From contig NC_042998.1 of the NCBI RefSeq assembly GCF_006345805.1, positions 14,880,001-14,944,000 on the forward strand: a stretch of 64,000 bases of DNA, read 5' to 3'. The position numbers and the translations under genes are program-made. This document shows positions 5,936 to 63,392 of the stretch, one piece after another. Numbering within the stretch: position 1 is the stretch's first letter; every line of letters starts with the position of its first letter. A model generated the notes under the pieces. It did not search any database and was not told where the DNA came from. It worked only from the letters and a program-made list of their open reading frames with translations. The DNA is from Octopus sinensis. Taxonomy: Eukaryota.

Positions 5936-6039
5936 ATGCTTACTGCACCTAGGTTTCCCAAGCAGTCACCCATCTAAGTACTGACTAGGCTCGACGTTGC
6001 TTAACTTCGGTGATCAGACGAGAACCGGTGCTTTTTCAA
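5936..6039 (-). pseudogene. 5S rRNA pseudogene, lacking ~18 nt at the 5' end, in a TIA1 intron
   Basis: reverse complement reads ttgaaaaagcaccggttctcgtctgatcaccgaagttaagcaacgtcgagcctagtcagtacttagatgggtgactgcttgggaaacctaggtgcagtaagcat, colinear with metazoan 5S rRNA including the internal control region. Confidence 0.88.
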
Positions 6040-6284
6040 AACATTCTTGGCAACATCTAGCATGTTTTTATTTTGGCTACAAAAATCTGCTTTGGGTGGA
6101 GTTCTTCCTACCCTCCCACTCTGGTTGGTTCTCTCTCTCTTTCTCTTACACACACAATCTGGTGAATGAACTATGAAAGTGTAAAGAAGACTGCTGGATT
6201 GCAGCTTTCGTGTATTTGAAAACAACTTACACGAACCCATGATTAAGGTAGTGAATTAAACCAATATTTTCTTTTTCTTTACAG

Positions 6285-27508: not shown

Positions 27509-27551
<43 letters not shown>

Positions 27552-27659
27552 ATAGTTTTTTCACAATACGCACGCTACTCAAATAAAGGTCGACAGTTGT
27601 GCCCATGACTTAGTGTTTGCTTCTTTCATGAGTATGAGTAAGTATCTCATTTATTTCTT

Positions 27660-27720
27660 TTACCACATGTAGAAGAGAGGGCTCTTAGTAGCTGACTCTG
27701 AAATCGGTCCGATATGGTAA
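27660..27720 (+). ncRNA. Hammerhead-like fold with variant core inside fold-back module 27551-27970
   Basis: TTACCA CATGTAGA AGAG..CTCT GAAA TCGGTCCGA TA TGGTAA; three stems intact, core deviates from CUGANGA. Confidence 0.5.
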
Positions 27721-27968
27721 TAATGGAATTTTTTAGAAATTTCTGTCGACCTTTATTCGAGTAGCGTGCGTATTGTGAAAAAACTATATGGTTAATGGAC
27801 AATATGTCCAATTTTTCGGCATATTTGGCATTAGAAATTTTTTTTCCCTTGCCCTCATTTATGAATTATATAAATTTAACCGTTAAAGGTATTTTTTAAT
27901 ATGCTGGCCATTGATAAAATTGTTTTCGAGAAAATATTTTTTTTCGAAAAGAATTTTATCCTCACATT

Positions 27969-28001
<33 letters not shown>

Positions 28002-28007
<6 letters not shown>

Positions 28008-29021
28008 AAAAAGGGACAGGCAAACAGGTTGCTTGACCGCATACCGAAAAAATAGAAATAGCAGTCAAGAATGCTTATTTCTATCAAAGTTGGACTCCGG
28101 GCATGACAAACCCTGTAATTCACATATGCAAAACAGCTTTCCATTGAAAAAGATTTATCATAGATTTATCAAATGCTACGTACCTCAAACCTTCTGACCA
28201 TGCGACATCAAAATATTTGAAGAAAAGCTAAACCTACATAGACGTTTGAATTTTGCCATGCGCATTACAAAAATAGTAATATAATAATAAATAATTTCTA
28301 TAAAGGCTTTTACCGAATTCTACCAGTAAATAATTGGGGTTTTTTTAAAAGCCTTTATAGAAATTATTTACTCTTATTATTATATTACTATTTGGATTTT
28401 TCACTCCCTTATGACAACCTAATTGTTCCCCATCTTATGGAACTATTTTTGTAATGCGCATGGCAAAACTTTGGAGGGAAGATTTACGAATTCAAACGTC
28501 TATGTTGGTTTAGCTTTTGCTCACTTTCTTCAAATATTTTGATGTCGCATGGTCAGAAGGTTTGAGGTACGTAGCATTTGATAAATCTATGATAAATCTT
28601 TTTCAATGGAAAGCTGTGCTGAAGAAGGATGTGAAATATATATACAATGTATATGAAATATATATCAAAAATATATATGGAATATATATTCAATATGTTT
28701 ATAATCCAGAAACATGATGTTCACAGATAACCGCCAGACTTCGTATTCGTTATCTATTCCTTCTGTTTTGCATATGTGAATTACAGGGTTTGTCATGCCC
28801 GGAGTCCAACTTTGATAGAAATAAGCATTCTTGACTGCTATTTCTATTTTTTCGGTATGCGGTCAAGCAACCTGTTTGCCTGTCCCTTTTTCTTATATAC
28901 AATATATATACTGAACTTTACAGAAGTTCCTGCCGGTAATCGGCTATATTTACATATCGAATTCTACCAGTAAATAATTGGGGTTTTTTTTAATAGCCTT
29001 ATAGAAATTATTTACTCTTAT

Positions 29022-29028
<7 letters not shown>
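28002..29028. mobile_element. Non-autonomous Penelope/retrozyme-like element: ~644-bp + strand unit with ~70-bp terminal direct repeat, preceded by an inverted, internally deleted copy
   Basis: 28002-28312 is the reverse complement of 28346-28898 minus several segments; 28314-28384 recurs at 28958-29028; (TA)n on both sides. Confidence 0.75.
28614..28726 (+). ncRNA. Type I hammerhead ribozyme
   Basis: CTGTG CTGAAGA A-GGAT..ATCC-A GAAA CATGATG TT CACAG; 5-bp stem I, canonical core, GUU site. Confidence 0.7.
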
Positions 29029-29105
<77 letters not shown>

Positions 29106-29373
29106 TGATAGAAATGGCAAGACAACAAAGGAATAAAAGAGACCTCGATATTGTTTAAATAGAGGAATTTATCTGTAAATATAATATGCGGCAATTATTC
29201 GGTAGCCATGATAAAACTCAGACTTTCGGATGTCGGAGCAGAAACCCACGCTGGCATCTCTTTAGTTATAAGGCCATCGAAAAAGATGCATTTTATATAT
29301 ATATGTACATATATATACATATTATACTACGTATTATATATTTATATTTTATATATATATGTATATCTATGTC

Positions 29374-53037: not shown

Positions 53038-53094
<57 letters not shown>

Positions 53095-53100
53095 ATAAAT

Positions 53101-54168
53101 ATAAAGGTAGCAAAAAAAAAACAAGAAAAATTCAAGAAAAATTTTCTGCAACCAGCGGTCAAGTCAGAAAATAGAAATAGTCACAGACTATATAATATAT
53201 TCAACAATAGTATTAAGGAATGACCCTGACAGGTCGTTCAACTCACTTGAAAAGAGCAGCTAAACTCAAACCGCAAAAATTGTAGTAATTCTGAAACTAA
53301 AGGAGAAATAAAAACATTTATCCCCTTCAACTTTGTACCCTGCAAGGTTTCAACATTTTTACGTAATCGAATTTAATTAAATTAAATTAAATCCGTTTAC
53401 GATTGGCTTGTCTCATCAGCAAAGTCGCCAAAGAAAAGGAGAACATATACACACGAGGCAGCACCATCGAAGCCTCGAGTTTATATATCCTAAATTTTCG
53501 AAATCCACCGTAACCGCGCCAACTACTCTGCAGCAAATATAAACTGCTGATACAATTTCAGAATTAGTCAAAAAATCATTAATTAATCAATATAAGGGTA
53601 GCAAAAAAAAATTCAAGTTTAGCTGCTCTTTTCAAGTGAGTTGAACGACCTGTCAGGGTCATTCCTTAATACTATTGTTGAATATATTATATAGTCTGTG
53701 ACTATTTCTATTTTCTCACTTGACCGCTGGTTGCAGAAAATTTTTCTTGAATTTTTCTTGAATTTTTTTGCTACCCTTATATTGATTAATTAATGATTTT
53801 TTGACTAATTCTGAAATTGTATCAGCAGTTTATATTTGCTGCAGAGTAGTTGGCGCGGTTACGGTGGATTTCGAAAATTTAGGATATATAAACTCGAGGC
53901 TTCGATGGTGCTGCCTCGTGTGTATATGTTCTCCTTTTCTTTGGCGACTTTGCTGATGAGACAAGCCAATCGTAAACGGATTTAATTTAATTTAATTAAA
54001 TTCGATTACGTAAAAATGTTGAAACCTTGCAGGGTACAAAGTTGAAGGGGATAAATGTTTTTATTTCTCCTTTAGTTTCAGAATTACTACTATTTTGCGG
54101 TTTGAGTTTAGCTGCTCTTTTCAAGTGAGTTGAACGAACCTGTCAGGGTCATTCCTTAATACTATTAT
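53101..54168. mobile_element. Retrozyme/Penelope-like element: two head-to-head, differently permuted copies of a ~490-bp unit
   Basis: 53101-53617 (-) and 53616-54168 (+) contain the same sequence, each with terminal redundancy (periods 491 and 489); flanked by (TA)n. Confidence 0.8.
53945..54044 (+). ncRNA. Type I hammerhead ribozyme, canonical (mirror copy at 53328-53427 on -)
   Basis: CGACTTTG CTGATGA GACA..TGTT GAAA CCTTGCAGGG TA CAAAGTTG; 8-bp stem I, perfect core, GUA site after 54036. Confidence 0.85.
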
Positions 54169-54209
<41 letters not shown>

Positions 54210-62970: not shown

Positions 62971-63192
62971 TATTCTGTTGTGTTTGGGGAGAGTCATTTT
63001 CTTTTTGTGCCTAATAATTTAACACACTCGCCGGTAAAATTTCCACTTATTTCTTAATTTTATTTTTATTTTTATATCAAAATATAAAAATGAAAATAAA
63101 AATAAGAAATAAGTGGGAACTTTACCGGTGGTGTGTGTGTAAAATTATTAGGCACAAAAAGAAAATGACTCTCCCCAGACACAACAGCATAT
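62971..63192. repeat. Fold-back with ~105-bp inverted arms, fused to a fragment (63196-63312) of the 28-29 kb element
   Basis: 62971-63075 vs 63083-63192 reverse complement; 63196-63312 matches 28912-29028. Confidence 0.85.
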
Positions 63193-63306
63193 ATATTGAA
63201 CTTTACAGAAGTTCCTGCCGGTAATCGGCTATATTTACATACCGAATTCTACCAGTAAATAATTGGGGTTTTTTTAAAAGCCTTTATAGAAATTATTTAC
63301 TCTTAT

Positions 63307-63392
<86 letters not shown>

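Follow-up and report, generated by a model that had tools for sequence, protein, structure and literature searches.

The inverted arm of a young insertion in the genome of Octopus sinensis lacks five pieces of a 644-nt non-coding unit that the forward arm of the same insertion retains, and we consider that these pieces were probably lost (a chance of about 0.6) through realignment jumps during reverse transcription of the second arm. In the wider family such jumps are arm-specific and occur in bursts, and the value of the analysis rests more on these family statistics than on the focal copy, which is an extreme yet non-functional dead copy. The unit belongs to a young family of non-autonomous Penelope-like (retrozyme-type) elements with (TA)n as their target, a class that the original prediction did not name, and the head-to-head tandem-plus-inverted layout is itself an already known Penelope-like architecture. 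Coordinates are positions in the window, the 64,000-nt stretch of DNA that was analysed, and a unit position is the window position minus 28313.

The focal insertion and its five deletions

The locus at 28001..29029 is one young insertion into a (TA)n microsatellite, with (TA)n on both flanks, and not a member of a deleted subfamily. Its features are as follows.

27971..28005, no strand: left (TA)n target microsatellite, from the flank sequence
28001..28312, minus: inverted second arm, unit ~33-586, with five deletions, from arm alignment and consensus
28133..28136, minus: junction left by the 149-nt deletion, at the microhomology CTGT and single-copy in the assembly
28311..28312, no strand: head-to-head inversion junction, a 2-nt TA overlap common to both arms, read directly from the sequence
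28311..29029, plus: forward first arm of 1.1 units (unit 642 to 72 of the next), by alignment
28314..28957, plus: 644-nt non-coding monomer, 32% GC, from its period and an ORF scan
28368..28373, plus: 6-nt gap of the inverted arm, microhomology TTA
28387..28441, plus: 55-nt gap of the inverted arm, microhomology ACTATTT
28467..28488, plus: 22-nt gap of the inverted arm, microhomology AA here and AATT in the family consensus
28516..28524, plus: 9-nt gap of the inverted arm, microhomology TTT
28614..28726, plus: predicted type I hammerhead ribozyme, by motif and fold, with its predicted cut at 28721/28722 (unit 408|409)
28614..28762, plus: 149-nt gap of the inverted arm, the whole hammerhead and the next hairpin, microhomology CTGT
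28894..28910, plus: TA-rich motif, unit ~581-597, at which the majority of second arms in the family meet (TA)n
28958..29029, plus: repeated first 72 nt of the unit, stopping at the fixed first-arm end of the family (unit ~60-82)
29025..29079, no strand: right (TA)n target microsatellite, from the flank sequence

The original prediction had described the left arm as a reverse complement with missing pieces, and in pairwise alignment the reverse complement of 28001-28312 indeed matches the forward unit in six blocks separated by five gaps, the coordinates first given for the gaps being right-shifted registers of ours. Its description of the layout was equally sound, as the arms are nearly identical between the gaps, with one mismatch (28506) at which the left arm carries the family base, and the period of 644 with a repeated start is seen in the direct repeat of 28311-28385 at 28955-29029, where the first ~75 nt are repeated. 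At an offset of 37 nt, the second arm is entirely contained in the first and equals the family consensus at 319/319 aligned nt, while the forward arm carries 7 substitutions against that consensus and no deletion of 5 nt or more in its 718 nt. The unit holds no ATG-initiated ORF of at least 50 aa, and an ORF for reverse transcriptase (RT) and GIY-YIG endonuclease is likewise absent from it.

Microhomologies of 3-7 nt border the five gaps when the 22-nt gap is taken against the family consensus, where it has four letters (AATT) rather than the two seen here because the C at 28469, shared with 1 other of 50 aligned monomers, is a substitution of the forward arm. When deletions of the same sizes are placed at random in the unit, the chance that all five reach at least 3 nt is about 1e-5, and the summed microhomology of 21 nt compares with 4.7 expected (P=8e-4, or P=2.5e-3 if AA is used for the 22-nt gap), so the excess of microhomology claimed for the deletion ends is real. 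Five deletions in one arm are also far above the usual second-arm rate (Poisson 1.6e-6, or 1e-4 over 78 loci).

The junction patterns of the 149-, 55-, 22- and 9-nt gaps each match a single place in 2.72 Gb, the locus itself; for the 55-nt junction this uniqueness is by exact match, its 44 one-mismatch matches being the intact form. These four single-copy junctions uphold the proposal of one insertion event and largely rule out a deleted subfamily as the source of the inverted arm. Spliceosomal introns are also ruled out, as had been argued beforehand, since neither GT-AG nor GC-AG borders are seen at the four larger gaps, whichever register or strand is read. Nor can the gaps be insertions into the forward unit with target duplications, because full-length monomers are the norm in the family.

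Arm bias, arm ends and RNA structure in the family

In the 2.72-Gb assembly the 644-nt unit forms a young, dispersed repeat with at least 998 search candidates, and its full-length copies are 95-99% identical (40 of the 998 candidates scored). Our counts are based on a convenience sample rather than the complete family: a DNA search and four pattern lists yielded 144 merged stretches, which were parsed into 151 insertion clusters, and the consensus was built from 50 full-length monomers. First arms are those that end at unit ~60-82, and second arms end mostly at ~586-597 or at another upstream TA motif. Two arms are joined head to head, in divergent orientation, in 109 of the 151 clusters, and the 110 two-armed clusters comprise 93 with one ~72 end and one ~586-type end, 16 with one unclassified arm, one with two second arms and none with two first arms. 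A (TA)n tract follows 115/117 first arms and 98/105 second arms, some loci having been collected with a TA-containing pattern, and dimers and trimers of the unit occur. Both arms derive from one source lineage, as they agree at 104 of 109 subfamily-marker comparisons; rare variants are mostly private to an arm (14 shared, against 51 and 53 private). The second arm is contained in the first in 53 of 83 insertions and neither arm lies inside the other in 26, and the 5' ends of the two arms fall within 20 nt of each other in 21 of the 83, against 9.1 by chance. The window holds a further copy of the family at 63189-63315, a 5'-truncated single arm with the usual first-arm end before (TA)n.

Deletions were counted in 78 two-armed clusters in which both arms are at least 96.5% identical, with L124 admitted by hand on account of a short arm, a complex duplication (L152) omitted and L014 and L008 not recounted because they and L046 represent a single locus; short-tandem-repeat contractions, events in the AT-rich loop, events in both arms and events adjoining insertions were dropped. 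The count is 19 deletions in second arms and 2 in first arms, and 14 against 2 without the focal locus, or 0.58 against 0.054 per kb, an approximately tenfold difference (p=1e-4) that bears out the expectation of deletions concentrated in the inverted arm, as a bias across genomic copies. By locus, and again without the focal one, 12 carry deletions in the second arm only and 2 in the first arm only (p=0.006). Half of the 14 non-focal second-arm deletions (7/14) are close to the (TA)n end, at no more than 25 nt, and each by itself is weak, resting on a few non-TA letters; when near-terminal deletions are removed, 7 remain against 2 (p=0.023). The bias persists when the class exclusions are lifted (20 second-arm against 8 first-arm deletions in 75 insertions, p=7e-4) and in a set ascertained by the tail motif (8 against 1 in 39 insertions, p=0.007). 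The 14 non-focal second-arm deletions have a mean microhomology of 2.1 nt, compared with 0.8 expected (p=1e-4), and the deletion-bearing insertions are no older than the others (p=0.45). A second case of a burst is L046, with three deletions in its second arm and none in its first.

Several loci in the sample have peculiarities of their own. A 12-16-nt skip at unit ~562-575, about 10-20 nt inside the end of the second arm, recurs in L084, L108, L124, L130, L137 and L046, in the terminal unit only. L147 and L155, on different chromosomes, have the same ~26-nt deletion (unit 110-135) in both arms and are a deleted sub-lineage that still transposed. L046 (with L182), L014 and L008 share a flank and the same three second-arm deletions, with the middle flipped around the 95/488 junction, and they may be redundant contigs or the products of flip-flop inversion between arms.

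The hammerhead proposed at 28614-28726 is retained here as a prediction that rests on motif and fold, because Rfam gives no hammerhead match for this segment. Stem I is formed by 28614-28618 and 28722-28726, the CUGAAGA and GAAA motifs are present together with a GUU triplet and a short stem III, and the 4-bp base of stem II carries an AT-rich extension of ~80 nt; in minimum-energy folding the segment adopts this structure. The type I hammerhead is present across the 50 monomers, copies that are too young for such conservation to indicate selection.

A step in the distribution of arm ends coincides with the predicted cut. Among 222 arms at least 95% identical, 35 have their 5' ends within 40 nt on its 3' side and 4 within 40 nt on its 5' side, and the strongest 5'-end step of the 540 positions scanned is at unit 409 (p=1.7e-7 before correction). 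Within 30 nt the step is present in each type of arm (14 against 2 for first arms and 12 against 2 for second arms), and the rate of first-arm termination drops from 4.0 to 0.6 per kb across the cut, which 66 of 117 first arms read through. Either cleaved templates or an enzyme that stalls at the folded ribozyme may have produced this step; both fit, and sequence cannot tell them apart because the 3' strand of stem I starts at the same base (unit 409). The landing sites of deletions do not cluster significantly at the predicted cut (3/13, p=0.34). In the part of PMC11167929 available to us, ribozyme cleavage was dispensable in vitro and RNA-seq gave no ends at the cut for the element studied there.

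The idea that structured RNA was skipped survives for one gap at most. From the first base of stem I, the 149-nt gap extends beyond the hairpin next to the ribozyme; alone among the five gaps it loops out a domain, and the structural distance between its ends is low (quantile 0.06), so that skipping of structured RNA is plausible there. For the other four gaps the quantiles are 0.32-0.75, and the mean over 15 family deletions is 0.51, although two 37-nt deletions elsewhere in the family are also low (0.08 and 0.09). Deleted segments are no more stable than random ones, and these two negative tests, of segment stability and of structural distance, give no support to hairpin skipping as a general explanation. 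Four of 13 3'-side breakpoints lie within unit 442-450, at the 3' base of the ribozyme/hairpin block (post hoc p=0.04).

Synthesis of the second arm and rival explanations

A course of events that would account for these observations can be proposed. The non-coding hammerhead element would probably be mobilised in trans by a Penelope-like reverse transcriptase/endonuclease, which would nick both target strands; one 3' end would prime cDNA at unit ~72, and the other would anneal through TA to unit ~586 of the same or a second RNA. If the second primer-template were held less firmly, its nascent end could dissociate and re-anneal further along, sometimes repeatedly, as would have happened five times at the focal locus and three times at L046. 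The two cDNA ends would then join through a short overlap (TA), followed by fill-in. At the hammerhead cut a minority of templates would terminate or stop the enzyme, most being uncleaved multimers or circles. Such a scheme has a partial precedent in the anole Penelope-like element (PLE), whose protein, according to the portion of PMC11167929 at hand, cuts and extends both target strands in vitro, with two internal starts defining the tail, and is predicted to be a dimer.

The low-processivity enzyme invoked in the original prediction is too general an explanation, because no comparable gap interrupts the forward arm, copied in the same insertion, and a single arm with five jumps is an outlier; first arms of the family have only 0.05 deletions per kb. 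The description of the locus as a direct record of the mechanism was likewise overstated, for at this locus sequence alone cannot separate jumps on an RNA template from fold-back synthesis on DNA. In the latter account, the 3' end of the first cDNA folds back at TA and the cDNA is copied, with jumps at microhomologies, by the DNA-dependent activity of the RT or by a host polymerase, e.g. Pol theta; copying stops once the target pairs with the TA-rich motif at unit ~586. This would still be one event at the time of insertion, and not RNA skipping. We regard it as unlikely for the focal locus, if a good deal more credible than the rivals discussed below. It is possible because the focal second arm lies inside the first, as in the majority of insertions (53/83), and because the 5' ends of the two arms are correlated, and it is consistent with jumps that are not tied to RNA structure; self-priming has also been put forward for head-to-head PLE repeats in the section of PMC3846280 that we could consult. 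Against it stand the 26/83 insertions in which neither arm is inside the other. Of 13 second arms with deletions, 6 (L046 with its three deletions is one) are not contained in their first arm and so were not copied from it. The privacy of most rare variants points the same way, though later mutation explains much of it, and the breakpoints at the 3' base of the ribozyme/hairpin block are placed as they would be for 3'-to-5' synthesis along RNA. We therefore favour reverse transcription primed from the second strand, on the grounds of the non-contained arms (26/83 and 6/13), the single source lineage of the two arms and the two-strand extension observed in vitro.

Long palindromes are unstable, and an intact, near-perfect palindrome of ~550 bp with a 37-nt spacer might have been inserted and later have lost pieces by hairpin-driven slippage or microhomology-mediated repair, much as microhomology deletions in rotifer PLE copies are ascribed to DNA repair in the available text of PMC3846280. 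This we hold to be improbable, as the arms of a palindrome are equivalent, yet deletions prefer the second; jumps that are arm-specific and bursty argue against later repair, which should strike both arms, and equally against a generally poor RT. Deletions are, moreover, unrelated to age, and at the focal locus five of them lie in an arm with zero substitutions. We attach very little weight to the possibility that the second arm was copied faithfully from an RNA already deleted, or stems from a separate insertion of a deleted subfamily: inherited deletions do exist in the family, in both arms of L147 and L155, but the four junctions searched each occur once only, the forward arm is itself intact, and both ends and the arm junction fit the single-event layout of the family. 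An assembly or long-read artefact of the hairpin is just as hard to credit. Inverted family copies have been mis-duplicated in the assembly (L046, L014 and L008, with their shared flank), and only one of the five junctions was seen outside it; but that one, the 149-nt junction, is spanned without mismatch by a 52-nt contig of run X2 at a depth of 32, and an artefact would show no second-arm preference. The contig extends 25 and 23 letters beyond the microhomology, below our bridging rule of 31 letters, and run X2 may be the assembly's own sample, hence not independent of the individual. The four smaller junctions were not seen among the X2 pieces listed, nor any junction among the X1, X4 and X5 pieces listed, which weighs nothing as evidence. 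Runs presumed to be RNA contain about a third of the words looked for, a figure on which we base no claim of expression.

Returning to jumps in second-strand-primed reverse transcription, a broader and more tentative reading, which we would not yet call probable, is that Penelope-type insertion is an asymmetric two-primer reaction, in which a firm first cDNA starts at a fixed site and a loose, jump-prone second cDNA is made on a second RNA, from a template pool partly cut by the hammerhead. If this is true, the 644-nt family would be a genome-scale in vivo record of how the inverted arm arises and of hammerhead cleavage in the PLE cycle, where the formation of tandem and inverted ends and the role of the hammerhead are posed as open questions in the accessible part of PMC8557442. 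Its footprints are countable (the ~tenfold arm difference in microhomology jumps and the step in arm ends at the cut), sharp predictions follow from them for the in vitro assay that already exists, and the analysis is repeatable in any genome with young PLE-type copies. What may be new is the arm bias of private deletions together with the 5'-end step at the predicted cut, neither of which was found in the papers and passages searched. The consulted portion of a paper on octopus repeats (PMC13282606) contains no mention of hammerhead or ribozyme.

Known elements and neighbouring repeats

A partial tandem, an inverted 5'-truncated copy, a tail at one end and a bias towards microsatellites are described for PLEs in the available sections of PMC8557442 and PMC3846280. 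With the EN+ Penelope-like elements (Penelope/Poseidon, Neptune and Naiad) the 644-nt family shares, as far as those sections go, the head-to-head inverted and tandem layout with a tail at one end, as well as (TA)n targeting, a type I hammerhead in the repeat and microhomology at internal junctions. It differs from them in having no ORF and a tail of about 130 nt (unit 586 to 72) rather than 30-40 nt, and in the arm bias of its deletions, which the same accessible text does not describe for EN+ elements. TA-like homology to the target is present at both of its ends; the anole element, by contrast, starts in vitro at sites without target homology, on the evidence of the PMC11167929 excerpt.

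Non-LTR retrozymes, which are non-coding tandem units with a type I hammerhead, have been proposed to be non-autonomous PLE derivatives (PMC7229834; bioRxiv 10.64898/2026.07.22.740005; PMC4209133, each in the part available). They share with the family a non-coding tandem unit that is low in GC and carries a single type I hammerhead (available text of PMC7229834; bioRxiv 10.64898/2026.07.22.740005); the length of 644 nt falls inside the range of 51-972 nt reported there, the 32% GC of the unit lies below the 45% that serves as their limit, and both co-occur with autonomous PLEs. Retrozymes are termed 'active', in the preprint (bioRxiv 10.64898/2026.07.22.740005), when they have at least two consecutive complete hammerheads; the focal locus has one, and L026, L136 and L014, among others, have two or more. 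Unlike these retrozymes as there described, the family consists of dispersed short two-armed insertions with inversions and has the ~80-nt AT-rich extension of stem II, and the word 'inverted' occurs 0 times in the PMC7229834 text and once, in a reference, in that of bioRxiv 10.64898/2026.07.22.740005. L1 twin priming is similar: there, microhomology lets the second target strand prime at an internal site, and the outcome is a 5' inversion whose internal junction shows microhomology or end joining (PMC11702581, in the text obtained). In that description the L1 arms abut on one RNA, with 1-10-bp deletions or duplications, while arms of the 644-nt family overlap by hundreds of nt and, again unlike L1 twin priming, have a fixed hot spot as their second start.

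ORFs of ~780 aa with RT and GIY-YIG endonuclease occur elsewhere in the same genome (150 of 5029 GIY-YIG candidates scored). No autonomous partner sharing clear sequence with the unit was found by word-7 blastn among 43 loci (L184-L226), where 40-53-nt matches of 79-85% in L207 and L226 stand beside otherwise AT-rich noise. Young autonomous Penelope-like families with ~780-aa RT and GIY-YIG frames are represented by L215-L219, L223-L226 and L184; L215 and L219 have an extra upstream open frame of 479 aa, and the L215 copy ends in (TA)n and has no canonical hammerhead by a strict scan.

The ORF scan of the flanks of the focal locus gave mostly microsatellite noise. Between two (TA)n tracts at 27550-27970 lies another repeat with a 47-nt inverted arm (27550-27596 against 27743-27789), a neighbour that suggests clustered PLE-type insertions, and in the right flank a decayed hammerhead-like stretch recognised by eye (~29195-29270, minus strand) resembles the motif of L172. 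A second, unrelated hammerhead family of the same layout is present at 53093-54183, ending in (TA)n, with a 174-nt inverted arm (53093-53266 against 53616-53788), an 80-nt direct repeat and type I motifs near 53419 (minus) and 53952 (plus). A solitary, somewhat diverged match to 5S rRNA is located at 5940-6055 on the minus strand.
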